Of a stretch of DNA of 64,000 nt, positions 1,894 through 64,000 are shown one piece after another (within the stretch, counting starts at the first letter, position 1; each line of letters begins with the position of its first letter). This stretch comes from Comamonadaceae bacterium. GTDB taxonomy: Bacteria; Pseudomonadota; Gammaproteobacteria; Burkholderiales; Burkholderiaceae_C. The stretch spans positions 7,142-71,141 of the forward strand of contig CANCER010000015.1 of the NCBI GenBank assembly GCA_947375135.1, given 5' to 3'. The notes under the pieces were generated by a model. It had not been told where the DNA came from, searched no databases, and saw only the letters and a list, made by a program, of their open reading frames with translations. The position numbers were made by a program, and so were the translations under genes.

Positions 1894-2205
1894 ATGACCC
1901 CGGGCGAAATCCTCACCGACGACGGTGAACACACCCTCAACGCCGGCCGGCGCACGTTGACGCTGGTGGTGCAAAACACCTCCGACCGCCCGGTGCAGGT
2001 CGGCTCGCATTACCACTTTGCCGAAACCAATGGCGCGCTGGGCTTTGACCGGGTTGCCGCCCGAGGCATGCGGTTGAACATCGCGTCGGGATCGGCCGTG
2101 CGCTTCGAGCCGGGCCAGCAGCGCACGGTGGAACTGGTGGACTACGCCGGTGACCGCGTGGTCTATGGCTTCCGGGGTTTGACGCAAGGGCCGCTGGCCG
2201 CTTGA
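1894..2205 (+). CDS. ureB: Urease beta subunit
   Basis: MTPGEI...[12 protein letters not shown]...[15 protein letters not shown]. Confidence 0.97.
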
Positions 2206-2229
2206 TGCACTGAGTGAAGGAACGAAGAG

Positions 2230-3972
2230 ATGGCAACCATCGGACGCCGCGCCTACGCGGAAATTTTTGGCCCCACCACCGGCGACCGCGTGCGCCTGGC
2301 CGACACCGGCCTGCTGATTGAAGTCGAGAAAGACTACACCCTGGCCGCCGGCGGCTATGGTGAGGAAGTGAAGTTCGGCGGCGGCAAGACAATTCGCGAC
2401 GGCATGGCGCAAAGCCAGCGCACGCGGGATGGCACGGGAACTGGGCCTGAAGCCGGTGGCGCGGTGGACTGCGTCATGACCAATGCGCTGATCATCGACC
2501 ACTGGGGCATTGTGAAGGCCGACATCGGGCTCAAGGGCGGGCGCATTGTCGGTATTGGCAAGGCCGGCAACCCCGACACGCAACCGGGCGTGGACATCAT
2601 CATCGGCCCGGGCACGGAGATCATCAGCTGCGAGGGCAATATCGTCACCGCCGGCGGCATCGACAGCCACATCCACTTCATCTGCCCGCAGCAGATTGAA
2701 GAGGCGCTGGCCAGCGGCGTCACCACCATGATGGGCGGCGGCACGGGCCCGGCCACCGGCACCTTTGCCACCACCTGCACACCCGGCGCCTGGAACATCG
2801 AACGCATGCTGCAGGCGGCTGACGCCTTCCCCATGAACCTGGGTTTCCTGGGCAAGGGCAATGCATCGCTACCCGCCGCGCTGCACGAGCAGGTAAATGC
2901 CGGCGTCATCGGCCTGAAATTGCACGAAGACTGGGGCACCACGCCCGCCGCCATTAGCAATTGCCTGGACGTGGCCGACGAGACCGATGTGCAGGTCGCC
3001 ATCCACTCCGACACGCTGAACGAATCCGGCTTTGTGGAAAACACCATTGCCGCCACCAAGGGCCGGGGACTCTGTGCCTTCCATACCGAAGGGGCCGGCG
3101 GCGGCCACGCGCCCGACATTTTGAAGGTGGTGGGCCAGGCGAACTTTTTGCCCAGCTCCACCAACCCGACCATGCCCTACACGGTGAACACGCTGGACGA
3201 GCATGTGGACATGCTGATGGTCTGCCACCACCTGGACGCGGGCATTGCCGAAGACCTGGCCTTTGCCGAGAGCCGCATCCGCAAGGAAACCATTGCCGCC
3301 GAAGACATCCTGCACGACCTGGGCGCCATCAGCATGATGAGCAGCGACAGCCAGGCCATGGGCCGCGTGGGCGAGGTCATCATCCGCACCTGGCAGACGG
3401 CGCACAAGATGAAGGCGCAGCGTGGCTCATTGGGTGAGGACACGGCCCGCAACGACAACTTCCGCGTCAAGCGCTATATCGCCAAGTACACCATCAACCC
3501 GGCGATTGCCCACGGCATCAGCCACGAGGTGGGCAGCATCGAGGTCGGTAAATTTGCCGATCTGGTGGTTTACAAGCCGGCCTTCTTTGGCGTCAAACCG
3601 GCCCTGATTTTGAAAGGCGGCTTTATCGCCTTCGCCGCCATGGGCGACCCGAATGCCAGCATTCCCACACCGCAGCCGGTGCACTACCGCCCCATGTTTG
3701 GCGCCTTTGGCGGCGCACTGCACCGCGGTTCACTGACCTTTGTGTCGCAGGCCGGCTTCAACGGCGGTATCAAGGAACGCTTCGGCCTGAACAAGTCTGT
3801 GAGCGCGGTGAAAAACATCCGAGGCGTGCGCAAGCAGCACATGATCCACAACAGCTATTTGCCTACGATGGAGATCGACGCGCAAACCTACGCCGTGCGC
3901 GCCGACGGCCTGCTGCTCACCTGCGAGCCGGCTACCAGCCTGCCGCTGGCGCAGCGCTACTTCTTGTTCTGA
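2230..3972 (+). CDS. ureC: Urease alpha subunit
   Basis: [33 protein letters not shown] motifs. Confidence 0.99.
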
Positions 3973-4181
3973 TTTGCGGCCTGAGGAAGGGCTTCTTGTG
4001 TCGGTGTATCGGCAACACCGCCTTGCACGGATTGAGGGTCAACCGTGGTGAGCGTGAACCCGCGCTCAGCTTCCGTCAGAAACAAGGTGTCGCCCACGCC
4101 CACCTTGAGGAGTTTCAGCACTTCTTCAGGTAGGACAAAGCCAAGCGAATCGCCGATTTCCAAAACTTCTATTGCATTCAT
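3957..4181 (-). CDS. AbrB/MazE/SpoVT-family small DNA-binding protein (orphan antitoxin-like)
   Basis: [29 protein letters not shown] matches the swapped-hairpin consensus. Confidence 0.7.
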
Positions 4182-4249
4182 GGCTAAGGTCTCCAAGGTA
4201 TAACGGTAGCAAATTTAGCTGCGAAACTTTCACGCGACAAGAGAGCACC

Positions 4250-4888
4250 ATGATTCAAGCATCCAAACTCATCCCCCAGGGCAAGGGCCTGGCTGCGGCC
4301 ATGCTCAAGCGGGCATCGACCATTGAACTGGACTGGGACCTGCGCCAGAAAAGCCGCTTCGAGGCCACCGATTCGGCCGGACGCAGCATCGGCGTCTTCT
4401 TGCAACGCGGCACCGTGCTGCGCGGTGGCGATGTGCTGGTGGCTGAAGACGGCTCGCTGGTACAGGTGTGGGCGGCGCCGCAGCAGGTGCTGCGCATCAC
4501 GCATTGCCAGAACCACGGTACGCCATTTGACCTGATACGCGCCGCTTACCACCTGGGCAACCGCCATGTGCCCATCGAGCTCAAGCCCGACTTTCTGCAG
4601 ATCGAGCCCGACCATGTGCTGGCCGACATGCTGCGCGCCATGCACCTGATCGTGAACCCGGTGGACGCGCCGTTTGAACCGGAGAACGGCGCCTATGCCA
4701 CCGGCGGCCATGCGCTGCACCACGGCCACGAAGCGCATGCGCAAGAGGCGCATGGACATGGCCACGGGCATAGCCATGCGCCGGCGCATGGGCACCACGA
4801 GCATGGCAAAGACCATGACCAGGGCACCGGCCACGACGACCACGGGCACCAGCACGGCCCGGATTGCGACCACGGCCACAAGCACTGA
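4250..4888 (+). CDS. ureE: Urease accessory Ni metallochaperone with long His-rich tail
   Basis: [18 protein letters not shown], poly-His C-terminus. Confidence 0.96.
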
Positions 4889-4898
4889 AGCGCTGCCG

Positions 4899-5576
4899 GT
4901 GCACGACATGTCCTTTATGCAGCTGATGTGGCTGGCGTCCCCTGCCCTGCCAATAGGCGGCTTCTCGTATTCCGAGGTGCTGGAGGCGGCCGTCGATTCC
5001 GGGCGCGTGAGCACTGAAGCCGAAGCGGCCGCTTGGTTGGTGGACCAGCTGCACCTGAGCCTGTCGCGCTCAGATTTGTCTGCCGTGGCGCAGGCCATCC
5101 CCGCTTGGCGCGCCCATGACCACGACCGCATCGCCGCACTCAACGCCTGGGTGCTGCAAACGCGCGAGAGCAGCGAACTGCGCGCCCAGACCGAGCAGAT
5201 GGGCCGCAGCCTCCTGGAGTGGCTGCGCAACCACACCACCGCCACCGCAGCACAAATTGCCACCCTGGCCGCCATGGATGCGAGTTACCCGATGGCGTTT
5301 GCCCTGGCCGCCTCGGCCACGCAAGCAAGCGTGCGCGATTGTCTGCTGGCCTATGCCTTTGGCTGGGCCGAGAACCTGGTGCAGGCCGCCATCAAATCCG
5401 TGCCGCTGGGCCAGAGCAGCGGCCAGCGCATTCTGTCTGCCATCACCGCCGAAATCCCCGCCGCCGTGGACCATGCTCTGGCGCTGGATGACAACGCGCG
5501 CCAGGCCTTCTCCCCTCTGCTGGCCATTTTGAGTAGCCAACACGAAGTCCAATATTCCCGTCTGTTTCGATCCTAG
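4899..5576 (+). CDS. ureF: Urease accessory protein UreF
   Basis: [15 protein letters not shown]...[11 protein letters not shown]; start GTG 4899 or ATG 4908. Confidence 0.95.
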
Positions 5577-5588
5577 GAAAAACCAACC

Positions 5589-6251
5589 ATGTCCTCCGCC
5601 CTGCACCATATCGCCAACCGCACCAAGAAGCTGCCGCCCCTGCGCGTGGGCATAGGCGGGCCGGTCGGCTCCGGCAAGACCACGTTGCTGGAAATGCTGT
5701 GCAAAACCATGCGTGCGCAATACGACCTGGTGGCCATCACCAACGACATCTACACCAAGGAAGACCAGCGCCTGCTGACGGTGAGCGGCGCCCTGCCCGC
5801 CGAACGCATCATGGGCGTGGAAACCGGCGGCTGCCCGCACACCGCCATCCGCGAAGACTGCTCGATCAACTTGGAGGCGATTGACCGCATGCTGGTCGAC
5901 TTCCCCAACGCCGACATCGTGTTTGTGGAAAGCGGCGGCGACAACCTGGCCGCCACCTTCAGCCCCGAACTTAGCGACCTGACCATCTACGTGATCGACG
6001 TGGCCGCGGGTGAGAAGATTCCGCGCAAGGGCGGCCCCGGCATCACCAAGAGTGACCTGTTCGTGATCAACAAGATCGACCTGGCACCCCACGTGGGCGC
6101 CAATCTGGACGTGATGGAAGCCGACACCATCCGCATGCGCACCACGCCCAAGGGCCTCAAGCCCTTTGTGATGACCAACCTGAAGACCCTGAGCGGTGTG
6201 GCCGCCATCGTGCGCTTTATCGAAACCCGGGGCATGCTGCAAGCCGTTTGA
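5589..6251 (+). CDS. ureG: Urease accessory GTPase
   Basis: [24 protein letters not shown]. Confidence 0.98.
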
Positions 6252-6304
6252 ACCGGCGGCATGATCGGGGCCGCACGCTTCAGCGGGTTAGAATAGGTGC
6301 CACA

Positions 6305-6394
6305 GGAAGCTTGGCCGAGCGGTTTAAGGCACCGGTCTTGAAAACCGGCGAGGATGTGAGTCCTCCGTGAGTTCGAATCTCACAGCTTCCGCCA
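6305..6394 (+). tRNA. tRNA-Ser (anticodon TGA)
   Basis: GGAAGCT...AGCTTCC acceptor stem, CCGGT-CTTGAAA-ACCGG anticodon arm, long variable arm, GTTCGAATC T-loop, GCCA end. Confidence 0.96.
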
Positions 6395-6395
6395 C

Positions 6396-6419
6396 AAGCC
6401 CCGCTCAAGGGGCTTTTTT
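6396..6419 (+). terminator. Rho-independent terminator after the tRNA
   Basis: AAGCCCC-gctcaa-GGGGCTT followed by a T-run. Confidence 0.85.
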
Positions 6420-6609
6420 ACGCCCCCGGAAAAACGAAACCCGGAGCTGAGTCCGGGTTTGTCCCTTTGAACAGGGCGGCCCGGATGGGTTGTTCCGGGC
6501 AATAGGCATTTGCCTGAGACGTAGATTAATCACTCCCCGGTCAATGTCAAGCTTGCAGTGCAGCAATTCCAGAGTTTGCGGATGATGGTGGCTGAGTTCA
6601 AGGGTTTCA

Positions 6610-6696
6610 TCAGTCGAAATTGGTTGCCGTGAACGACTGAATAGCCTGCGCCGCCTGACGCACATCCCACAAGAAGGCGCGGGGATCACGCTGCAT
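6610..6696 (-). pseudogene. Truncated HepT/DUF86 (HEPN) toxin, first ~28 codons only
   Basis: MQRDPRAFLWDVRQAAQAIQSFT then stop; overlaps the MNT stop codon as in MNT-HepT pairs. Confidence 0.7.
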
Positions 6697-7015
6697 ATAC
6701 AGCTTCACGATTGCGGTTGATGCTGGCCAGCACAAAGGGATTACGCACTGCGCCAGGCTCCACCAAATCGACACCACGGCCCAGCAACTGCTCCAAATCG
6801 GCCTTGGCGCCAAAAAAGGCATTCAGCCCCGGCTGCGAGCCGGATGCGAACTCCACCAAAAAGTCGGCATCGCTGGTGGCAGGGTTGAAATCATCCGCAC
6901 GGGCGGCCGAACCAAACACCTCCAAGCGGCTAATGCCGTAGCGCTGGCAGATGGCAGCTATGCCTGCGTGTGTTGGGAGATGGCGGGGTGCATGGTCGGA
7001 TTGAGGGCTACTCAT
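6686..7015 (-). CDS. Minimal nucleotidyltransferase (MNT/MntA-type antitoxin)
   Basis: VFGSAARADDF...SDADFLVEF...LLGRGVDLV. Confidence 0.88.
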   Translation of the reverse strand: MSSPQSDHAPRHLPTHAGIAAICQRYGISRLEVFGSAARADDFNPATSDADFLVEFASGSQPGLNAFFGAKADLEQLLGRGVDLVEPGAVRNPFVLASINRNREAVYAA

Positions 7016-7059
7016 CCCGAGCCAGCCCTTTCGGCGTCACGGCGGCCCTGCTGCCCTAC

Positions 7060-8292
7060 TTACCCATGCACCACATGCTGACCGATTTCCGGCCAGCGCC
7101 TGCGGATAAGCAGCCAGGCGCACAGTCCTATGCCCATCAAACAGACCGAGGTCGCAGCCAGTGCCACGGGGGAATGCATCACCAGCGGCGACACCACACC
7201 AGCCACCAGGCCGTTGGCGCTGGAGCCAATGAACATCTGCAGGCTCGACGCCATGCCGCGGCGCTCCGGGTGCAGGTCCAGCACCAGCAGCGTGATCACC
7301 GGCACCATCATGGCCCAGCCGAAGGCGAAGATGCAGATGGGAATCAGGGCCCAGGCCACATCGGCCTTGAACAGCAGGTTGGCCGCCAGGTTCAGCACGC
7401 CGATGCACAGCATGATGACAAAGCCGTTGCGGATCTGGCGCTTGGGTGCGAGCTTGCCGGCGGCCCGGCCACTGACCCATGCCCCACCCATGATGCCGCC
7501 GATGGTGAGCAGGAAGAACCAGAAAAAATGCTGGGGCGGCAGACCCAGGCCCTCGCCCAGAAAAACCGGCGCGCTCAGGACGTACAAAAACATGCCGTTA
7601 AACGGAATACCGCTAGACAACGCCAGCAGGAAGAAACGCGGGTCCGAGCCCAGCTTCCAGTAGCCCGCCAGCAAATTACGCGGGTGAAAGGGCTGGCGCT
7701 GCTCCACGTGCAGCGTCTCCGGCAGCAAGCGGTAGTTGGCAACCCACAACACCACGCCCACCCCGCAGAGGAACCAGAAGATGGCGTGCCAGGTGAAGTG
7801 AATCAGCAGCCAGCCGCCCAGCATGGGCGCAATCGCCGGTGCGGCGCCAAAAAAGATGGTGACCTGGCTCATCACTTTTTGCGCCTGCGAGGGCGGGTAC
7901 ATGTCGCGCACGATGGCGCGCGACACCACAATGCCCGCGCCGGTGGACAGCCCTTGCAGCACCCGGAAGAAGATCAAATGGCCTATGGTTTGCGACAGCG
8001 CGCAGCCCACCGAGGCCAGCGTGAACACCGCCAGCCCCGACAGCACTACCGGCCTGCGGCCCACGCTGTCGGAGAGGGAACCATGGAACAGGCTCATGAA
8101 GGCAAAGCCGAACAGGTAGGCCGAAAGCGTCTGCTGCATCTGCACAGGCGTAGCATCCAGTGAACGGGCGATGTCGGAAAAGGCCGGCAGGTAGGTATCA
8201 ATCGAAAACGGCCCCAGCATGCCCAGCAGTGCGAGAAGAATGGCAAACGCCCATTGGGGGGCGTGCCATAGCGTTTTTGCGTCGGGATTCAT
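7060..8292 (-). CDS. Bcr/CflA family drug efflux MFS transporter
   Basis: LGPFSIDTYLPAF, GSLSDSVGRRPV, about 12 TM segments. Confidence 0.93.
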   Translation of the reverse strand: MNPDAKTLWHAPQWAFAILLALLGMLGPFSIDTYLPAFSDIARSLDATPVQMQQTLSAYLFGFAFMSLFHGSLSDSVGRRPVVLSGLAVFTLASVGCALSQTIGHLIFFRVLQGLSTGAGIVVSRAIVRDMYPPSQAQKVMSQVTIFFGAAPAIAPMLGGWLLIHFTWHAIFWFLCGVGVVLWVANYRLLPETLHVEQRQPFHPRNLLAGYWKLGSDPRFFLLALSSGIPFNGMFLYVLSAPVFLGEGLGLPPQHFFWFFLLTIGGIMGGAWVSGRAAGKLAPKRQIRNGFVIMLCIGVLNLAANLLFKADVAWALIPICIFAFGWAMMVPVITLLVLDLHPERRGMASSLQMFIGSSANGLVAGVVSPLVMHSPVALAATSVCLMGIGLCAWLLIRRRWPEIGQHVVHG

Positions 8293-8433
8293 GCCACCAT
8301 TGGAACACGGAGCCTGCGCGCGCAGGAGCGCAACCAGGCGCTGCTCGACCCACTGTGGGGCTAACCCTAGAACGGATTTGGCGATATGTCCGGAGAATGG
8401 GAGAGGTTCAGTCATAACAAAAGGAATACCACC

Positions 8434-10113
8434 ATGGCCCAAGAGAAGCTGATACTGGATTACATCTACGAACACGAGTCCACACGCTCGGACCAGGTGT
8501 TCTTGTCGCAACCGGTAGGCGGCGGGCGGGTCACCGATTACACCTGGGCCCAAACCATGGACCAGGCGCGCCGCATGGCCACCCATATCAAGTCGCGCAA
8601 CTTCGGGCCCGGCGCGCGCATTGCCATCCTGTCCAAGAACTGCGCCCACTTCGTGATTGCCGAGTTGGCCATCTGGCTGGCCGGCTGCACCACGGTGGCC
8701 ATCTTCCCGACCGAGACCGCCGAAACCATCCACTACGTGCTGGAGCACAGTGGCGCCAGCCTCTTGTTTGTGGGCAAGCTCGACCTCTGGGATCACCAGG
8801 CTGCCGCAGTGCCGTCCGGCCTGCCCTGTATTGCGTTACCCCTGGCACCGCCAACGCCCTTTGAAAGCTGGGACGTGATTACCGCACGCACCATGCCGTT
8901 CACCGGCAAGGTGCAGCGTGCCGCCTCGGACATTGCCATCCTGGTGTACACCTCGGGCTCCACCGGGCAGCCCAAGGGTGTGATGCACAGCTTCAAGGGC
9001 ACAACGGCGGCCAGTGTGGGCATGCACCAGTTCATCCAGCAGCAGATCGGGGCAGACGTTGCGCCGCGCGTGCTTTCCTACTTGCCGCTGGCGCATATTT
9101 TCGAGCGCTCCTGGATCGAATGCACCGCACTGGTGGACGGGCATACCCACATCTATTTCGCCGAATCACTGGACACCTTCCTGCAGGACCTGAACCGTGC
9201 CCGTCCCAATGTGTTTCTTTCGGTGCCGCGCCTGTGGCTGAAGTTCCAGCAGGGCGTGTTCACCAAGATGCCGGCCAGGAAGCTGGACCGGCTGCTGCGC
9301 ATCCCGATTCTTGGCCGCATCGTCGCGCGCAAGGTGCTCAAAGGGTTGGGGCTGGACCAGGTGCTGCTGGCCGCCAGCGGCTCGGCGCCCATCCCCCCCG
9401 AGCTGATCACCTGGTACCGCCGCCTGGGCTTGAACCTGATGGAGGGCTACGGCATGACCGAAGACTTTGCCTACTCGCACGCGTCCACCCCCCATCACGC
9501 CTCCACAGGCTGTGTCGGTATGCCCATGCCGGGCGTACAGGTGCGGCTCACGGAGGAGGGCGAAATCCTGATCAAGTCCCCCGGGCAGATGGTGGGCTAC
9601 TTCAAACGCCCGGATCTGGACGCCGAGGTGTTCACCGCAGACGGCTACTTCCGCACCGGCGACAAGGGCCAGCGCACGCCCGACGGGCTGCTCAAGCTGA
9701 CCGGCCGGATCAAAGAACTCTTCAAAACCTCCAAGGGCAAATACATCGCGCCAGCCCCGATTGAAAACATGCTCAATGCCCACCCCATGGTCGAGATCTG
9801 CATGGTGTCCGGTGTGGGTCAGCCTGCGGCCTACGCCATGGTGGTGCTGGCAGAAGACCTGCGCCCGCGCGTCAACACGCCGGAAGTGCGGGCCGAGGTG
9901 CAGCGCGAGCTCACCGAACTGCTCCAAACCGTGAACAGCCAGTTGCCCGAATACGAGCAACTGCGCATGCTGGTGCTGGCATCCGAACCCTGGTCGATTG
10001 AGAACGGCTACCTCACACCCACCATGAAGATCCGCCGCAACCGCATAGAAACTGCAGTACACGGCGACATGGAGAAGTGGTACGCCAGCAAAGAGCCCAT
10101 TCACTGGGCCTGA
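8434..10113 (+). CDS. Long-chain fatty-acid--CoA ligase (AMP-binding)
   Basis: YTSGSTGQPKG, EGYGMTE, RTGD, LTPTMKIRR. Confidence 0.93.
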   Translation: MAQEKLILDYIYEHESTRSDQVFLSQPVGGGRVTDYTWAQTMDQARRMATHIKSRNFGPGARIAILSKNCAHFVIAELAIWLAGCTTVAIFPTETAETIHYVLEHSGASLLFVGKLDLWDHQAAAVPSGLPCIALPLAPPTPFESWDVITARTMPFTGKVQRAASDIAILVYTSGSTGQPKGVMHSFKGTTAASVGMHQFIQQQIGADVAPRVLSYLPLAHIFERSWIECTALVDGHTHIYFAESLDTFLQDLNRARPNVFLSVPRLWLKFQQGVFTKMPARKLDRLLRIPILGRIVARKVLKGLGLDQVLLAASGSAPIPPELITWYRRLGLNLMEGYGMTEDFAYSHASTPHHASTGCVGMPMPGVQVRLTEEGEILIKSPGQMVGYFKRPDLDAEVFTADGYFRTGDKGQRTPDGLLKLTGRIKELFKTSKGKYIAPAPIENMLNAHPMVEICMVSGVGQPAAYAMVVLAEDLRPRVNTPEVRAEVQRELTELLQTVNSQLPEYEQLRMLVLASEPWSIENGYLTPTMKIRRNRIETAVHGDMEKWYASKEPIHWA

Positions 10114-10187
10114 GCAGGAAAAGCGGATTGGGCGAATAATTTGCCAGGGAACCTTTCCCTTCCTTCACCCATTCAGGAGACATCACC

Positions 10188-10817
10188 ATGCAACCCCCAT
10201 CCCGCTTGAGATCCCCAACCCGTCTTGCCGCTGCAGCCATGCTCGGCCTGGGCATGCTGGCAGGCAGCACCCTGCACGCCCAGAGCGGGAATTTCACCCT
10301 GAGCAGCCCGGACCTGGCGGGTGGCAGCTTTGACAACAAGTTTGTGCTCAATGGCTTTGGTTGCAAAGGCGACAACGTGTCGCCCGCACTGGAATGGAAG
10401 AACGTCCCCGCCGGCACCAAGTCGCTCTCGCTGCTGGTGCACGACCCCGACGCCCCTACCGGCAGCGGCTTCTGGCACTGGACGGTGCTGAACATGCCCG
10501 CCGGAACCACCGGCCTGCCGCAAGGTGCGGGCAACGCGGCGGCCACCCTGCCGGCACCCGCCTTTGGCGGCAACACCGACTTCATGGACACCGGCGCCAC
10601 CGGTGCCAACGGCAATTACGGCGGCCCCTGCCCACCTGTGGGCGACAAGCCGCACCACTACCACTTCACGCTGTACGCGGTGGGCGTGGACGATGTGCAA
10701 AAGGCTGGAGGCGTGCCCAAGACCGGCAGCGCGGCGCTCTATTCTTTTGTGCTGAACAAGGGCATAGGCGCGGGCTTGCTGGGTACGGCCACCTTTACCG
10801 CGACCTACGGTCGCTAA
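10188..10817 (+). CDS. YbhB/YbcL (PEBP/Raf kinase inhibitor-like) exported protein
   Basis: HDPDAPTGSGFWHW, YGGPCPP, signal peptide. Confidence 0.93.
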   Translation: MQPPSRLRSPTRLAAAAMLGLGMLAGSTLHAQSGNFTLSSPDLAGGSFDNKFVLNGFGCKGDNVSPALEWKNVPAGTKSLSLLVHDPDAPTGSGFWHWTVLNMPAGTTGLPQGAGNAAATLPAPAFGGNTDFMDTGATGANGNYGGPCPPVGDKPHHYHFTLYAVGVDDVQKAGGVPKTGSAALYSFVLNKGIGAGLLGTATFTATYGR

Positions 10818-10899
10818 GCCCGCACACGCGGATGCCCACCGGGAGGTGCGGCACCCCTGCGGGTAGCATGACCCGCGCAAGGCAACTGCGCGGGCCGGC

Positions 10900-13164
10900 T
10901 TACACCTGTAGCGGCAGTGCGCGCTGGCGCTGGCCCGTCAGCACGAACAAGGCATTCGCCACAGCCGGTGCCAAAGGCGGCAAACCCGGCTCGCCCACAC
11001 CGGCCGGCGGGCGGGTGCTGACCACCGTCCAGGTTTCTACCACCGGTGCATCGGCCAGCGTCACCATGGGGTAGTTGTCGAAGTTGCGCTGCTGCACCAC
11101 GCCGTCGGTAATGTCGATGCGGCCATAGAGTGCTGCCGTCAAACCAAAAATCACCGCGCTTTCCATCTGCTGCGCCACAAGACCCGGGTTGATGACCGTG
11201 CCGCAGTCCACGGCGCACACCACCCGGTGTACGCGGGGCTTGCCGTCCAGCAGCGAGACCTCGGCCACCTCGGCCACGATGGAGCCAAAGGACGCGTGCA
11301 GGGCAATGCCGCGCGCATGGCCTGCTGGCAGCGTGCTACCCCAGGCGGCTTTTTCGGCAGCCAGATTAAGCACCGCCAGATAGCGCGGCGCGTCTTTCAA
11401 CAGGGCCTGGCGCAAAGCCAGTGGGTCCTGCTGGGTTTCGAAGGCCAGCTCGTCGATAAAGCCCTCGGAAAAGAACGCGTTGTGCGAATGCCCGACCGAG
11501 CGCCAGAAGCCCACCGGCACACCGGAGTGCGTAGCCACATGGGCCATGTGCTGGCTGGCGAAGCCATAGGGCAGGTCGAACAGGCCCTCCGCAGTGGTCT
11601 TGTCCGGCGTGTCCACCGGGCCTGCCAGTGCGGGCAAGCCGCGCTCCATCCAGCGCGGGGTGATGGCGTCACCGGCGGAGTGGATGCGCAGGCTGCTGAC
11701 CCGGCCTTGGGCATCGAGCGCCGCGCGCAGTTGCGCGACATGCAGGGGGCGGTAAAAGTCGTGCGTGGTGTCTTCCTCGCGTGACCACAGCAGTTGCACC
11801 GGCAGGCCGTCGCAGGCCATGGCCACGCGTACCGCCTGCGCCACGAAGTCGATGTCCAGCCGGCGCCCGAAGCCGCCACCCAGGTAGGTAACGTGCAGGG
11901 TGACCTTGTCCACATCCACACCGGCCACCTTAGCCGCCACGTCGCGGGCAAAGCCGGGTACCTGGGTCGGAGCCCAGACGTCGAGTGTGCCGTCCTTGAA
12001 TCGCGCGGTGCAGTTCATGGGCTCCATGGTGGCGTGTGCCAAATAAGGCGCGCTGTAGCTGGCCTCGACCACGCGGGCTGCGCCCGCCTCGGCCGCAGCG
12101 GCATCACCCTTTTCGTAGAAAGTAAAGCCCTTGTCGGTCTTGAGCGTAGCGCGCAGGCTTTGCTGAATGCGCGCCGAATCGAGTGCGCCCTCTTTGCGCT
12201 GCTGCCATTGCACGGCGACCGCCTGCACCGCAGTACGGGCATGCCAGCTGGTTTTGGCGACCACGGCAAAACCAGCGGTGGAGCCGGCAACCGCATCCAG
12301 GCGCACCAGCTTCATGGCGCCGGGCAGCGCCAGTGCGGCCCGGTCATCCAGTGTGGCCACGGTGCCGCCCAGCATGGGACACATGCGCACGGACGCGAAC
12401 AGCAGGCCGGGCAGGCGCACGTCAATGCCGAAGCGGGCCGTGCCATCCACCTTGGCTGGGATGTCCATGCGCAGTGCGCTTTGGCCGATCAGCGTCCAGT
12501 GCTTGCGGTCTTTCAGAACCGCCTTCGCCGGGGTGTGCAAAGCGCCGGCTACCAGCTCGCCCCAGTGCGCGCTTTTGCCGGTGCGGTGCCGCACAAGGCC
12601 CTGCTCCATCGTGAGTTCTGCCAGCGGCACCTGCCACTGCGTGGCGGCAGCGCCCAGCAGTTGCGCGCGGGCGGCGGCCGCAGCCAACGGCACGACATCC
12701 CAGGCATCAGCCAGGCTTGACGAGCCGCCGGTAGCGTTGATGCCCAGCTCGCGCGCAATCTTGCCCACCATCCATTCCCCCAGGCGCACCTTGGCGGGCT
12801 TGTTGCCGCCTTCAGACTCCAGCGGATGGAAGGGCAGCGAAGCCACCAGCATGCTGACGTTGCCATACATCTTGTCGGCCGTGGCCTGTTCCAGGCGCAC
12901 CAGGCTCAGAGGCACATCCAGTTCTTCCGCCACCAGCATGGCCAGGCCGGTGTGTACGCCCTGCCCCATTTCGCTGCGCGGCATGGCCAGAATGACGCTG
13001 CCGTCCCGGCCGATCTTGATCCAGCCATTGAGGGCCACATCCCCTTCGGTGGGCAGCATGGTCGCGGGCGTGCCCAGACGCGAGCGCGGAGGCAGCATGC
13101 CCCAACCCACCACCAGCGCACCGGTGGCGCCCAGGGCACTCAGTATCCAGGTGCGGCGCTTCAT
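10900..13164 (-). CDS. Isoquinoline 1-oxidoreductase beta-like molybdopterin subunit (xanthine dehydrogenase family)
   Basis: [28 protein letters not shown]; RR-containing N-terminus. Confidence 0.92.
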
Positions 13165-58755: not shown

Positions 58756-59154
58756 TCACACGTTGCGCATCCAGTCGGCCGTCTGAAAAAATGACTCCTG
58801 CAGACGCGCGCGCAGCCCCTCGTGCACCGCCACCTCGCCCATGGCCTGGTTCATGCAGGCCAGCCACTGGTCGCGCTCCAGAATCCCGATCTTGAAGGGC
58901 ATGTGGCGCGCGCGCAGGCGCGGGTGGCCGAAGCGCTCCACATAGTGCTGCGGGCCGCCCATCCAGCCGCACAGAAACCAGTTCAACTTCTCGCGTGCAG
59001 AAGCCAGGTCCGGCCCGTGGGCTGCGCGCAGTTCGGCATAGCCGGGCTCCAGGTCCATCAGGTCATAAAAGCGCTCCACCAGCGCGTGGATGGCGGACTC
59101 GCCGCCCATCAAGGTGAAGGCGGTTTCGCCCTGCTGCTGCTCTTCATCACTCAT
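58756..59154 (-). CDS. Group II truncated hemoglobin
   Basis: LVERFYDLM, GGPQHY..FGHPRLRARHMPF, RDQWL. Confidence 0.93.
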   Translation of the reverse strand: MSDEEQQQGETAFTLMGGESAIHALVERFYDLMDLEPGYAELRAAHGPDLASAREKLNWFLCGWMGGPQHYVERFGHPRLRARHMPFKIGILERDQWLACMNQAMGEVAVHEGLRARLQESFFQTADWMRNV

Positions 59155-62100
59155 AGGTTCTCGCTTGAAAAATGCCGGGCGTTGAGGGTGCCCCGCCAAT
59201 CGCCCTCAAACACCATGTCGCAAACCAGGGTCTGGCCTTGGGCCACCAGCTCCAGCTCCCCTGCGCGCGCAAAGCGCTGGTCGGCATAGGCGCGGGTCAG
59301 GCGTTGCAACAGGGCGTGCTTGTACAGCGTGTCATCAGAGCCCTTCAACTGCAGGCCCTTGGTTTCCAGCACCACCAGTTTGCTGGCGCTGCCCTCGGCA
59401 ATGCGCGCAAACACAAAGTCCGGGTAGACCTTGTTGCGCTTCCAGCCCTGCAGGCCATATTGGGCCTTGGCCACATTGCGGTGCCACCACTGCAGGGCTG
59501 CTTTGCCATCCAGGTAACAGGCCACGTCGCGCTCCAGGCCGGAGTCGGTCAGCGCCGTCAAGGCGGGCTCAAACAGGCTCTTGGCGACTACGGTACCGTC
59601 GTCGTCGCGCACCAGGGGCTGCAGCTTGCCCGACAGTTCCTGCGCAAATTCGGCAGGGATTTCATAGTCCGTCGCATCCGCGCGCAGGCTGAACTCAATC
59701 TGGCCGCCGGCCACACACTGCTCAAACACCGCCTGGGCCAACCGGTCGCGCTCGCACTCCACATCCATGCGCAGGCGCTCCAGCAAAGAGGCACTGCTTA
59801 GTGCAATGGCCTCTTGCGCCAAACCCTGCGCCAACAGGCGCTGCACCACCGCCTCTACCCATTCCCACACGCACCAGGCGTTGGGCGCGATGTCCAGCAG
59901 CCCACGCACCAGCGCGGCGCGGTCCAGCACCGCCTCGCGCCACTCCGGCACACCGGCATCTGGCAATGCGGCGTCTTCCAGCAGGTCCAGACCCAGGGCA
60001 AAGCGCCGGCCCAAGGCGGCTTGTGCAGACGGGGCCCAGCCAGGCAGATCGCCCCGCGCGGCGCCCAGGCCAGCAACATCCAGCTGCGTCCAGTCAATGC
60101 GCGACAACACATCACTTTCATAAGCCAGTTCGCGCCGCTGCTTGGCGCCCGAGGCCTCGGTCTCCACCCACGTCACGCGCGGCAAAAAGACCCGCAATTG
60201 CGCGAACTGCGCACGGCGCTTGAAGTGCACCGGCTTGGGGGCAGCCGGGTCGGCCGCATCGCCATGCACCGCCAGGGCCAAGTCGCCCATCCCTTCGGTT
60301 TCCAGGGATTGTTTGATGGCCTTTACCACCTCACCCGTCTTGGCGTTGTAGCAAAGTACGTAGCAGGCATCCAGCGCCGGGCGGCCCGTCTTGGCCACAT
60401 GCGGCAGGCGCAAGATGCGCCCGGTCAGCTGCGTCATGGCGCGCACGTCTTTGCCCGCAGCCAGCGCGCACAGCACATAGGCGAAGGGGCAATCCCAGCC
60501 CTCTTGCAACGCCTGCTTGGTGATGATGGCGCGCACCTCGCATTGGGGACTCAGCAGGTCCAGGTTTTCGGGCGACTTGAGTTCGTCCTTGTCCGATGTC
60601 TTGATGGCAATCTGCGCGGGCGTAAAGCCCAGCTGCATCAGGTAGGCCTTGGCGTCTTCGGCGTGGATGAAGCCGCTGTCGCGCAAGTCCTTGCCCGTGC
60701 GCTCCACCTGCACCAGCAGCATGGGGCGTATGTAGCGGTTGGTCTCGGCGCGCAAGCCGGCCGCCTCGGCCTGCAACAGGTCGAGCTGCTGCACGCTGGC
60801 AGCCAGACAGCTTTGCCAGTCGGCCCAGCCGCGCATGTCCACGTTGATGGGCAGCTTGATCATCTCCGCACCATCCAGGTCGGTGCCGCGCACGTCCACC
60901 AGAATGTTGGAGCCCGACGCTGCATCACCCTTGGCCGCAGCCTTGCTCGCGTCTTTGGCACTCACCACCCGGGGCGTGGCCGACAGCTCCAGCATGAAGC
61001 AGGGGTTGAAGCCATCCAGCGTGCGCAAGGCATTCTCGGTGTAGGCGTGGTGCCCTTCGTCAATCACCACCATGGGGCGTACCAGCCGCAGCACATTGCC
61101 CAGCGAGCTTTTCACAATGCTGCCCTTGGTGGCGCGCGCCTCGGCCTGGCTGGTTCCCCAGGCGGTGTAAGCATCCAAATTGGGCACCGCGTTCAGCAGC
61201 TTCCAGTGCGCCTCAATGTCATCCTCGCGTGGCAGAAAGCCCAGCACGTTACCTCGATCCCTGAAGGCCTTGAGCTTGCGCTGCGCCTCGTCCTTGCGCG
61301 CGGCCGACTGCAGCATCAACAGCATCACGCACAGGTTGGAGTCCAGGTCCAGCCGCGTCAGGGGCGAGTCTTTTTCCAAAATCTTCACGCGCCCGGCGCC
61401 TGCCACATTCAGCATCTGCCGATACGGGTGGTCACGGTTGGCCAGCGTCTTCAAGGTCTGGCGGTAGATCGCCTCGTTGGGAACAATCCACAGCACCAGC
61501 CCGGCGTGGCGCTGCAGGTAGCTGCCAAACACCTGGCCCACGCTGGCCGCTGCCAGCAGGGTCTTGCCGCCACCCGTGGGCACCTTCAGGCAGACATTGG
61601 GCACGGCGCTGCCAGTGCCGTCAAAGCGACTGGAATAGGGCTGCTCGGCAAAGGCCTTGGGCAGCTTGCCGCTGGCCCTCAGCGCGGCCCATGTTTTCTT
61701 GGGGAAGTCACCTGCGTCACGCAGCACGTCTTCCATGCCCTCCATCGCCCGCAAGGCGGACTGGGCCGCCACCGTGTGGGCCTGGTGCTTTTTAAGTTCG
61801 GCCAGATAGGTGCCCAGTTGCTCCAGCACCTTGGTCTGAAATTCCTTGGGCTGCACGCTGCCCAGGTGGTGGCGCTCCACCGCATGGCGGCGGGGCTCCC
61901 AGAAGACCTTGCGGTCCTGCTCTATGCGGGCTCTGAATTCCGCACTGATTGGGTCTGCCAGATTCAGCACATCGGTGCGGTAGATCAGCTCCAGGTCTTC
62001 CACATCGGACGCAATGCCCACCGCATCCGAACCGGCCTCGTGCGCAAAGGCCAAGTCAATATCCGAGGTGCTGCGGTGATCGCCACGCGCCCTGGAGCCA

Positions 62101-62213
62101 TACAGCCACACCTTCAGCAAGCCCGGCGTCTTGTCAAACAAGGCCTGCAGCCGCGCGAAGCTAAGGGGTGCAATCCCAAAGGGCCAATCCTTTTCGGCGT
62201 CAGGCACCGTCAT
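59151..62213 (-). CDS. Type III restriction (Res)-like DEAD/DEAH helicase-nuclease with N-terminal fused MNT nucleotidyltransferase domain
   Basis: N-terminal LYGSRARGDHRSTSDIDLA; PTGGGKT, IDEGHH, ALQEGWDCP, QLTGRILR; C-terminal YPDF..LETKG. Confidence 0.9.
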   Translation of the reverse strand: MTVPDAEKDWPFGIAPLSFARLQALFDKTPGLLKVWLYGSRARGDHRSTSDIDLAFAHEAGSDAVGIASDVEDLELIYRTDVLNLADPISAEFRARIEQDRKVFWEPRRHAVERHHLGSVQPKEFQTKVLEQLGTYLAELKKHQAHTVAAQSALRAMEGMEDVLRDAGDFPKKTWAALRASGKLPKAFAEQPYSSRFDGTGSAVPNVCLKVPTGGGKTLLAAASVGQVFGSYLQRHAGLVLWIVPNEAIYRQTLKTLANRDHPYRQMLNVAGAGRVKILEKDSPLTRLDLDSNLCVMLLMLQSAARKDEAQRKLKAFRDRGNVLGFLPREDDIEAHWKLLNAVPNLDAYTAWGTSQAEARATKGSIVKSSLGNVLRLVRPMVVIDEGHHAYTENALRTLDGFNPCFMLELSATPRVVSAKDASKAAAKGDAASGSNILVDVRGTDLDGAEMIKLPINVDMRGWADWQSCLAASVQQLDLLQAEAAGLRAETNRYIRPMLLVQVERTGKDLRDSGFIHAEDAKAYLMQLGFTPAQIAIKTSDKDELKSPENLDLLSPQCEVRAIITKQALQEGWDCPFAYVLCALAAGKDVRAMTQLTGRILRLPHVAKTGRPALDACYVLCYNAKTGEVVKAIKQSLETEGMGDLALAVHGDAADPAAPKPVHFKRRAQFAQLRVFLPRVTWVETEASGAKQRRELAYESDVLSRIDWTQLDVAGLGAARGDLPGWAPSAQAALGRRFALGLDLLEDAALPDAGVPEWREAVLDRAALVRGLLDIAPNAWCVWEWVEAVVQRLLAQGLAQEAIALSSASLLERLRMDVECERDRLAQAVFEQCVAGGQIEFSLRADATDYEIPAEFAQELSGKLQPLVRDDDGTVVAKSLFEPALTALTDSGLERDVACYLDGKAALQWWHRNVAKAQYGLQGWKRNKVYPDFVFARIAEGSASKLVVLETKGLQLKGSDDTLYKHALLQRLTRAYADQRFARAGELELVAQGQTLVCDMVFEGDWRGTLNARHFSSENL

Positions 62214-62605
62214 AGCGTTTGCAGCTTGTCGCGCAAGGCGTCAAACACAGCCAGCGCGTGCGTGCGCACATAGGCATCCACGGTCACCGCCGTGGCTTCG
62301 TTATAGGTGTGGCTGGTTTGGTTGCGCTGCTCTTTGATTTGCTCCCATATCTGTGGGTCGGCAATCAGGCCACAGCGGAAGGCCGCCTGCAAAATGGCGC
62401 GCTGCATTTCGGGCGTGTTTTCGCCCTGGTTACGCAGCCAGTTGAACATGCACTTCCAGGCCAATTCGTAGGTGAACTCAAAGCGCTGAATCAGGCTGTC
62501 GCGAATGATGTCGGTCTGGTCCAGGGCCACCACTTCATGCAAGCGGTCCAGTGCCCGGAAGTATTGCTTGCGCGTCAATTCAAAACGTTCTCTGAAAGTG
62601 TCCAT
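62210..62605 (-). CDS. HI0074-family HEPN protein (nucleotidyltransferase substrate-binding subunit)
   Basis: RDSLIQRFEFTYELAWK, RNQTSHTY (Rx4H). Confidence 0.9.
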   Translation of the reverse strand: MDTFRERFELTRKQYFRALDRLHEVVALDQTDIIRDSLIQRFEFTYELAWKCMFNWLRNQGENTPEMQRAILQAAFRCGLIADPQIWEQIKEQRNQTSHTYNEATAVTVDAYVRTHALAVFDALRDKLQTL

Positions 62606-62606
62606 C

Positions 62607-64000
62607 TCAAGCCTCCCGATACAAAGCAAAGGGCAGCGGCGCATAGTCCACGCCGTGTTCGAGCAACTGCTTGTTGCTCATGTATTTGGCCGGGGCAAAC
62701 ACCAGGTGGCGCTTGCCGTCGCCCTTGCCGCCCTGCTTGGCCTGGCCCCAGGCGGCAAACTCCTTGGCGCGGCTCAGGGTCAGGGCTGCGTCGGGCGATT
62801 TCAAAAATGACAGCTCGGGCGCATACACCAGCCAGACATGCGCGTCGCTGGCCTCGCCCAGGTACCACGGGGGCGCGCCCTTGGGGCTTGGCAACAAGGT
62901 GCCGCCGGTGGCGGTGTAAAACAGCCAGGCACCCAGCGCGTCGAAGGCGGGAAGCACTTCGCCACTGAGCAGTTTTTCCACGTCCAGCGGTTCGCCCAGC
63001 GTGCAATAGGTGAACTCGCCGCCCAGGCCATCGGCCATTTCGGACAAGCGCTTTTCGCCTTCCACCCGTAGCACGCCGTCTTTGAGTTCGACGTTGATTT
63101 TGTGGAAGCGCTTGCTTTTTGGGGGGGCACTGGCGGTGTTGGCGGTGTTGGCGGTGTTGGCGGTGTTGGCGGTGTTGGCGGTGTTGGCGGTGTTGGCGGT
63201 GTTGGCGGTGTTGGCAGGGCCCGCTGGCTGGGTGGGCGGCAGGCGGTTCTGCTCCGTGTCCCCCGCCCGCTGCGCGGGCTCCTCCTTAACCTGCGCAGAA
63301 CCGTCTGCCGCCCATCCGTCCAGCTCCATTTGTGCCGCTGCTTCCACAAAGCCTTCCTGCACCTTGATGGCTTCCACCTTGGCTAGCCATTGGTCGGCTT
63401 TTTTGAACTGGGTGAAGGTGATTTTTTCTTCGAGCAAGGTCTCGCGCTGCGTGCCCTGCCAGGCGTAACCCATGATGGCACGACGTACGCGCTCGGCGGT
63501 CAGCTTGTCGGCATAGTCTTCGCCTTCAACCAGAATGAACTTGCGCCGCCCCCCGTCCTTGGCATTGGCCTTGAGCACGGCATGGGCGGTGGTGCCGGAG
63601 CCAGCGAAGCTGTCCAGGATGAGGGAATCACCATGCGTGGCCAGATCAAGAATTCGACCAAGAAGACGCGTAGGTTTTGGATAGTCGAACGGGTTGGCTG
63701 CACCAAGAATTTCGTTGATTTCCTTTTTTGCCTCTTGGTTGTGACCGACCTCCTCGTTGCTCCACCAGGTCCAGCCACTCACTCCCTGACTTTCGTCCAG
63801 ATAGGTTTTAATTCGCGGCTTCGCATTTCCTGAAACGCCAAACCATATCTTGCCCTCACGCCTGAGCCGCAAAAACTCAGGCTCCAGCATGGACCAGCAC
63901 CGTCCAGGTGGCGCGGCCACCAGTTCTCCGCTTGGTAACGCTACTTTGTATTGCTGGTCTTTTCGCTTGGTTGCGTCCGGATTTTGGGCCGTCATGTCGG
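62607..64000 (-). CDS. Type III modification (Mod)-like N6-adenine DNA methyltransferase, C-terminal part; start lies beyond the window
   Basis: FDYPKPTRL, ILDSFAGSGTTAHAV, KFILVE..YAD..TAERV. Confidence 0.9.
   Translation of the reverse strand, partial: DMTAQNPDATKRKDQQYKVALPSGELVAAPPGRCWSMLEPEFLRLRREGKIWFGVSGNAKPRIKTYLDESQGVSGWTWWSNEEVGHNQEAKKEINEILGAANPFDYPKPTRLLGRILDLATHGDSLILDSFAGSGTTAHAVLKANAKDGGRRKFILVEGEDYADKLTAERVRRAIMGYAWQGTQRETLLEEKITFTQFKKADQWLAKVEAIKVQEGFVEAAAQMELDGWAADGSAQVKEEPAQRAGDTEQNRLPPTQPAGPANTANTANTANTANTANTANTANTANTASAPPKSKRFHKINVELKDGVLRVEGEKRLSEMADGLGGEFTYCTLGEPLDVEKLLSGEVLPAFDALGAWLFYTATGGTLLPSPKGAPPWYLGEASDAHVWLVYAPELSFLKSPDAALTLSRAKEFAAWGQAKQGGKGDGKRHLVFAPAKYMSNKQLLEHGVDYAPLPFALYREA
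63132..63212. repeat. Tandem 9-bp repeat (GGCGGTGTT)x9 encoding (ANT)9 inside mod
   Basis: Counted directly in the sequence and in the translation. Confidence 0.95.
63226..63321. repeat. Fifth copy of the structured palindromic unit, in-frame within mod
   Basis: TCCGTGTCCCCC-GCCCGC-tgc-GCGGGC-TCCTCCTTAACCT core with a different ~27-bp closing stem. Confidence 0.88.

Follow-up and report, generated by a model that had tools for sequence, protein, structure and literature searches.

A predicted HEPN–MNT toxin–antitoxin pair embedded in a type III restriction–modification operon, with the antitoxin domain fused to the restriction subunit

Toxin–antitoxin (TA) modules composed of a HEPN ribonuclease and an MNT nucleotidyltransferase are among the most abundant TA modules, and the accessible text of Yao et al. 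(2020, PMC7641770) leaves their trigger open in its discussion. Class I HepT/MntA pairs, PF08780 toxins included, are defined there by the motifs RX4HXY and GSX10DXD, and transfer of AMP onto the HEPN tyrosine, a covalent modification, was demonstrated. For the Lpg2920/Lpg2921 system of Legionella, the HepT active site was located at Q44/E47, and the short MNT functions without a C-terminal helix (Jin et al. 2024, PMC11586414). A general role of HEPN proteins as back-up of restriction–modification (R-M) was proposed by Anantharaman et al. (2013, PMC3710099), where HEPN fusions to R-M subunits and clustering of HEPN-MNT pairs near R-M genes are also listed. Here we describe a type III R-M operon with an embedded HEPN gene, in which the MNT is fused to the restriction subunit Res. 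It lies in a window of 64,000 nucleotides, the whole stretch of DNA that was analysed (G000:C15:7142-71141). Domains were called with Pfam, NCBIfam and PADLOC profiles, and all genes of the operon are on the minus strand:

62607..64000, minus strand: 3′ part of mod, type III methyltransferase (PADLOC MTase_III, E 1e-101)
62210..62605, minus strand: HEPN gene, 131 aa, HI0074/PF08780 family (PF08780, E 6e-30; TIGR01987 above cut-off)
59151..62213, minus strand: MNT::Res fusion open reading frame (ORF), 1020 aa (Pfam and PADLOC)
61899..62186, minus strand: MNT domain, aa 10-105 (G39-S40, D51 and D53 of GSX10DXD; D81)
61848..61898, minus strand: linker, aa 106-122 (17-19 aa in 86/86 homologues)
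59151..61847, minus strand: Res moiety, aa 123-1020 (Walker A K217, DEGH D385, QxxGRxxR, PD-(D/E)xK D932/E950/K952)
61926..62606, minus strand: exchangeable HEPN-MNT block (edges mapped in six relative pairs and projected onto the window)
61887..61925, minus strand: conserved last MNT codons (IExDRKxFWEPRR), downstream edge of the exchanged block

A first-pass annotation, made from the letters alone, had proposed the order mod, HI0074-type HEPN with an intact RNQTSH and a 1020-aa MNT-Res ORF, with tightly coupled genes; profiles and motifs bear this out. The HEPN gene starts 1 nt past the mod stop, the start codon of MNT::Res overlaps the HEPN stop (ATGA), and the long ORF is free of internal stops; PF18765 matches its aa 22-106 and PADLOC REase_III its aa 123-1007 (E 7e-191). 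The complete Mod comprises 682 aa, its gene running from a start 655 nt past the window end (G000:C15:71796) to the stop at 62607. As in type III R-M systems, mod, with DPPY and FxGxG (here FAGSG) motifs, is upstream of res, and Res combines superfamily 2 helicase motifs with a C-terminal PD-(D/E)xK nuclease; its top fold match is EcoP15I Res (4zcf_C, E 5e-10). A functional hallmark of type III systems is ATP-dependent cleavage close to two unmethylated sites in inverse orientation. The locus thus shares gene order and helicase and nuclease motifs with canonical systems (EcoP15I Res; PADLOC REase_III PDLC03653 and MTase_III PDLC03640), but differs from them in the N-terminal MNT, which lies outside the profile match, and in the intervening HEPN gene. 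Judged by sequence, the architecture is real and conserved and combines two known kinds of system, type III R-M and HepT/MntA TA.

The support across 61850-61920 that the first-pass annotation wished to see was obtained from one run and in part from another. Run X1, from which the window DNA may stem, has a contig that matches 59000-63160 with 0 differences. From another study (X3), a 151-nt contig covers 61757-61907 and likewise shows 0 differences; it spans the linker and ends at 61907, only 9 nt into the MNT. Contigs of the RNA run X2 fall on parts of mod and res and none on HEPN or MNT, which is uninformative on expression, and a promoter and terminator scan gave a signal near chance.

The same annotation had suggested searching for the fusion in other genomes. 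With aa 1-135 as query, 439 candidates yielded 85 other clusters at 90% identity, each with both PF18765 and PF04851 in its annotation; because it recurs in these clusters, the fusion is neither chance nor a sequencing error. In the alignment of the 86 rows including the query, GSX10DXD, the third acidic residue (84 Asp, 2 Glu), Walker A and the DE motif are present in 86/86 and the nuclease residues in 85/86; in a larger set, 200/203 fused proteins have GSX10DXD. A search with Res only (aa 123-620), which avoids selecting for the MNT, revealed PF18765 in 118 of the best 120 of 7941 matches, and the remaining two begin inside the MNT, keeping its C-terminal half. A clean loss of the whole TA block was not found among these best 120 matches, and the fused clade extends to sequences with as little as 64% identity in the helicase. 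A tree built from 284 helicase rows groups all 214 fused rows in a single clade (Shimodaira–Hasegawa (SH) support 0.925), and none of the 70 unfused rows, a limited sample, falls inside; an earlier tree gave 208 fused rows and SH 0.917. By this tree, the MNT::Res fusion has a single origin. Annotations such as ‘DEAD/DEAH box helicase’ or ‘type III restriction enzyme’ hide the TA layer in more than 200 sequence clusters.

A helicase-pattern scan of 8/64 parts of the genome collection yielded 80 loci, 10 of them fused (Burkholderiales, Dechloromonas, Rhodanobacteraceae and another proteobacterium), with the HEPN directly upstream in 10/10 and mod in view in 9/10. Within the genus of the window, the fused type is present in 6/159 genomes, and 10 others have a related HEPN-MNT pair that stands alone. 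Metagenomes were scanned with a linker pattern from a 7-row junction alignment, a 12-row alignment being too variable; the resulting 49 loci, some of them near-duplicates, are therefore biased to loci whose MNT tail is conserved, and loss of the MNT could not show up among them. An intact HEPN lies directly upstream in 44/49, with RX4HXY in 43 and Cys for Tyr in one (L116). The 49 include L107, uninformative at a contig edge, and L144, a probable chimera with the MNT joined to topoisomerase repeats; L175 (genome G323) entered none of the analyses. Three metagenome loci have in-frame deletions that inactivate the HEPN and keep the MNT::Res start overlap:

L136, 3707-3871: middle of HEPN lost, MNT::Res kept
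L145, 2016-2222: middle of HEPN lost, MNT::Res kept
L126, 282-623: deletion through mod and HEPN

Deletions confined to the HEPN, as in L136 and L145, are expected of a costly toxin. HEPN and MNT are under purifying selection: over 10 pairs, the ratio of non-synonymous to synonymous divergence (dN/dS) was 0.05-0.25 for HEPN, 0.03-0.19 for MNT and 0.05-0.23 for Res, with several dS values above 1. Res extends to the C-terminal nuclease in 29/30 loci with room for it. Viral contigs gave 57 pattern matches, 0 of them confirmed. Among plasmids, 51 records match Res only, and none of the 15 matches listed begins before residue 110.

The embedded pair fits the sequence definition of class I HepT/MntA, whose toxins belong to PF01934 or PF08780. 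The PF08780 HEPN carries the full RX4HXY (RNQTSHTY with R94, H99 and Y101, at 62326-62303), which is kept in 52/52 loci that had scores for each of HEPN, MNT and Res, and the adjoining MNT carries GSX10DXD, as required for PF01909 antitoxins. HEPN residues Q40/E43 (62488-62477) match the Q44/E47 metal site of the Lpg2920/Lpg2921 pair; this Q motif is present in 36/52 loci. The model of the MNT (predicted local distance difference test score (pLDDT) 93) superimposes on PDB 8xeh_E with a template modelling (TM) score of 0.88, and its fold is nearest to TA antitoxins. The closest solved relatives of the pair are Lpg2920/Lpg2921 of Legionella (PDB 8xeh/8xdj) and HI0073/HI0074, with which it has the PF08780 HEPN, RX4HXY and overlapping genes in common; like the 8xeh/8xdj pair, it has a short MNT without a long C-terminal helix. 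Res is attached here at the very end where the short Legionella MNT lacks this helix. Unlike HepT/MntA, the MNT is not a small stand-alone antitoxin (38 bits against the NF047752 cut-off of 60), but forms the N-terminal domain of the 1020-aa Res; the pair lies within an R-M operon and is swapped as one block. By homology with the systems of Yao 2020 and Jin 2024, the HEPN is likely an RNase that is neutralised by oligo-AMPylation. A separate 265-aa protein, P0204, encoded on a 2.5-kb contig, joins a HEPN to an MNT of the kind found on Res (HEPN::MNT).

Pairwise distances among loci, taken for each part of the locus, were correlated over 39 non-redundant of 52 full loci (10 were dropped for gaps and 3 as duplicates). 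The rho values were 0.58 for MNT-HEPN, 0.08 for MNT-Res, 0.03 for HEPN-Res and 0.86 for the Mod C-terminal end with Res, and Mantel tests gave p 0.0005 for MNT-HEPN and p 0.38 for MNT-Res; the 12 genome-derived loci alone gave 0.40 (p 0.002) and 0.06 (p 0.35), respectively. In these alignments the MNT co-varies with the HEPN, as a cognate antitoxin should, and the independence of the two that the first-pass annotation had allowed for is not what was found. A clade of five loci in the TA tree, a group picked after inspecting distances and tree, is rejected by the Res data in an approximately unbiased (AU) test (p 0.0005).

The HEPN-MNT block is exchanged between R-M backbones at fixed edges, which is new here. 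Res proteins that are almost identical are combined with strongly divergent HEPN-MNT pairs, and in locus pairs such as L003/L138, L109/L114 and L104/L132, DNA identity is mostly 75-97% in the flanks and mostly 30-65% inside the block of ~690 bp. As its edges are the mod stop and the last MNT codons, the fusion is kept through exchange. Assembly chimeras could imitate single cases, but hardly the overall pattern. Fast evolution alone as the cause of the TA divergence was rejected because reciprocal pairs exist (L127/L133: MNT 82%, HEPN 80%, Res 69%), and repeated capture of HEPN-MNT from outside was rejected on present sampling. In trees that include 28 stand-alone pairs, the 39 fused pairs group as one clade with joined (0.966) and with HEPN (0.923) sequences, and the MNT-only tree lacks this clade. 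A single lineage of fused pairs points to one capture followed by divergence and shuffling by recombination in the conserved arms. Such exchange would vary toxin/antitoxin specificity while the conserved arms hold the MNT in frame.

At the junction, the linker is predicted with low confidence (pLDDT < 50 at aa 109-117). The full-length model (predicted TM score 0.45; MNT well folded, nuclease region unreliable) was used for domain boundaries only. In the window, the slot of the ancestral Res start holds a GTG without a Shine–Dalgarno (SD)-like motif; among fused proteins, this slot is Met in 4/202. A conserved internal restart of Res as a rule was rejected, given a non-start codon at the ancestral slot in 24/39 loci and a linker start with an SD-like motif in only 2/39.

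We favour, at somewhat less than an even chance, the reading that the HEPN is a second-line defence whose brake, the MNT, is made, located and degraded together with Res. A type III R-M operon would have captured a HEPN-MNT pair once, between mod and res, with fusion of the MNT to the Res N-terminus. By homology with HepT/MntA, the MNT would silence the HEPN RNase by AMPylating Tyr101, and the HEPN would act as a growth-arresting second-line defence. Res would be a plain tether or carrier, coupling antitoxin supply to the restriction subunit; we take it as a carrier rather than a sensor because MNT and Res do not co-evolve. If Res were degraded, not made or sequestered, or ATP low, HEPN that is freshly synthesised or has lost its AMP would remain active and cleave RNA.

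The guard idea of the first-pass annotation, a HEPN released when phage inhibits or degrades the restriction enzyme, may still apply through shared synthesis and degradation with Res, and its version with PrrC-like sensing has become less likely. PrrC/PrrI (EcoprrI) likewise has a HEPN RNase gene in an R-M operon and a proposed release upon restriction failure, as far as the accessible text goes (PMC3710099); PrrC, however, is an ABC-ATPase–HEPN protein bound to a type I complex, whereas here a single-domain HEPN of 131 aa stands alone and its enzymatic antitoxin is carried by Res. With regard to latency within the R-M complex and release by an anti-restriction protein, as in PrrC, no MNT-Res or HEPN-Res co-variation was seen. 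Together with the absence of MNT-Res co-variation, the varied pairs on near-identical Res and the low-confidence linker make a PrrC-like interface less likely. Free exchange of the block makes a specific MNT-Res sensing interface unlikely.

Several observations weigh against the tethered second-line defence itself. The lack of MNT-Res co-variation over the 39 loci leaves no sign of a specific interface. As AMPylation is covalent (PMC7641770), loss of the MNT would free modified HEPN only through new synthesis or a de-AMPylase. Stand-alone pairs have the order HEPN-then-MNT in 22/27 cases and unfused relatives often carry other cargo between mod and res (HicAB, DUF3800, DUF4160/DUF2442, DUF559), so one lost stop codon suffices for the origin of the fusion without selection. 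The ATG or GTG at the ancestral slot in 15/39 loci makes a separate Res product possible. G003 has an intact HEPN-MNT beside a broken Res, G342 (L185/L196) and L139 have an intact HEPN beside a frameshifted MNT, and three proteins lack the start of the GS motif; all of these may be assembly errors. Finally, the operon occurs at many chromosomal sites with mostly housekeeping neighbours rather than defence islands.

The alternative that survives best, plausible although somewhat doubtful, is a frozen accident: the pair would be type VII TA cargo that works on its own, sensing for instance ATP or stress, and a stop codon would have been lost once; Res would have lost its own start, and the fusion would persist solely since Res now needs the MNT start and the conserved arms recombine. 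The single origin, the gene order that predisposes the MNT to fusion with the next gene, the rarity of Met at the ancestral slot and the free exchange of blocks all agree with it, as does the other gap cargo. The latter includes a sister unfused type III locus of Nitrospirota (L028, 5557-6800) in which mod and res enclose genes for a class II HEPN and a separate MNT as well as a GIY-YIG gene. In Acetobacter, HEPN, MNT and hsdS are adjacent and unfused, which also suits an accident. Against it stand the fixed linker length of 17-19 aa, the absence of any clean loss of the TA block among the best 120 Res matches of a clade this deep, and repeated MNT fusions to other immune subunits. One such fusion is found in a type I operon, where an unrelated MNT lineage is joined to HsdS with an HI0074-type PF08780 HEPN directly upstream:

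L176 (G266:C16), 1909-12748: hsdM, YaaA-like, unknown, HEPN, MNT::HsdS, DUF4268, reverse transcriptase, hsdR

Zymomonas mobilis pZMOB01 also encodes an MNT::HsdS (WP_014466389.1) with a PF08780 HEPN directly upstream, and Methylase_S was detected in 10/19 long MNT representatives scanned. As in MNT::Res, the MNT is joined to a subunit of an immune complex, with another partner and an independent MNT lineage, so tethering of the MNT arose again on HsdS. PDB entries 9z7q/9z7v/9z7x list a chain ‘Cmr1-MntA’, known from the chain name alone, for which no paper was found. These convergent fusions fit adaptive tethering and also the ease of losing one stop codon. A broader proposal, which we consider rather unlikely, is a general guard design in which MntA is hung on an immune subunit (type III Res, type I HsdS, CRISPR Cmr1), destruction or shutdown of the machine by phage unleashes the HEPN, and the TA cassette of the Res clade is shuffled to outrun phage counter-measures. 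Some HsdS proteins (P0314, P0317, P0320) have two MNT domains.

It is improbable that the pair is an addiction module. In that reading the tether makes the cell depend on the R-M operon: once mod or res is lost or silenced, the antitoxin disappears and the cell suffers, and the benefit is stability of the locus, not protection from phage. The scattered chromosomal sites of the operon, its presence in 6/159 genomes of the genus and the intact Res in 29/30 loci would suit addiction, as would the dependence of the EcoP1I and EcoP15I Res proteins on Mod for their level; however, the N-terminal MNT survives downstream breaks in res (G003), a deletion through mod and HEPN exists (L126), and modified toxin should remain inactive after loss of the locus. 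Still further from likely is an MNT repurposed as a regulator of restriction that acts by modifying Res, Mod or nucleic acid, with the HEPN as an accessory subunit: its covalent attachment to Res and the intact motif where the HEPN is deleted (L136, L145) would agree, but the MNT tracks the HEPN and not Res, the acceptor tyrosine is kept in 52/52 loci and the fold is closest to TA antitoxins. A one-off stop-codon loss or assembly error, for which the metagenome-derived assembly of the window gave cause and which the first-pass annotation had itself raised, is refuted by the 85 further clusters, the matching contigs, the Res-only search and the 214-row clade.

Fusion of an MNT to Res or HsdS was not found in the accessible parts of the literature searched, which included Anantharaman 2013, Makarova 2009 and 2013, Yao 2015, Yao 2026, a 2025 review and Payne 2024; supplements and subscription papers may list it. 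The literature searched also yielded no guard of a type III R-M system. Cargo nested between core genes, as seen here, was described for Hma, BREX, DISARM and type I R-M by Payne et al. (bioRxiv 10.1101/2024.01.29.577857), in whose accessible text no fusion of a cargo antitoxin to a core subunit was found. The MNT part matches PADLOC PDC-S09 weakly. The lineage offers natural test constructs: the antitoxin either fused or split, and naturally exchanged cassettes whose Res proteins are almost identical (for example L003/L138, L109/L114).

The variable loop of Mod in the window contains a perfect 9-bp tandem repeat of 9.4 copies that reads ANT-ANT (loop region with repeats at 63131-63215 and 63246-63314). 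Also in the loop, and in frame, is an arm of a dispersed repeat for which 43 genome matches exist, many of them arranged as inverted pairs ~150-230 bp apart. The Mod of G342 has a similar peptide. Two genes downstream of res, past a truncated globin, lies a ParB-like nuclease gene (PF08857; 57970-58725, plus strand). SEC-C motif genes flank the operon in the genome of the window and in L133 and L136. Several fused loci (L001, 7805-12008; L017; L022; L031) adjoin the same FtsX-like permease/globin/Smr/LytB region, a possible preferred insertion site, and others lie elsewhere.

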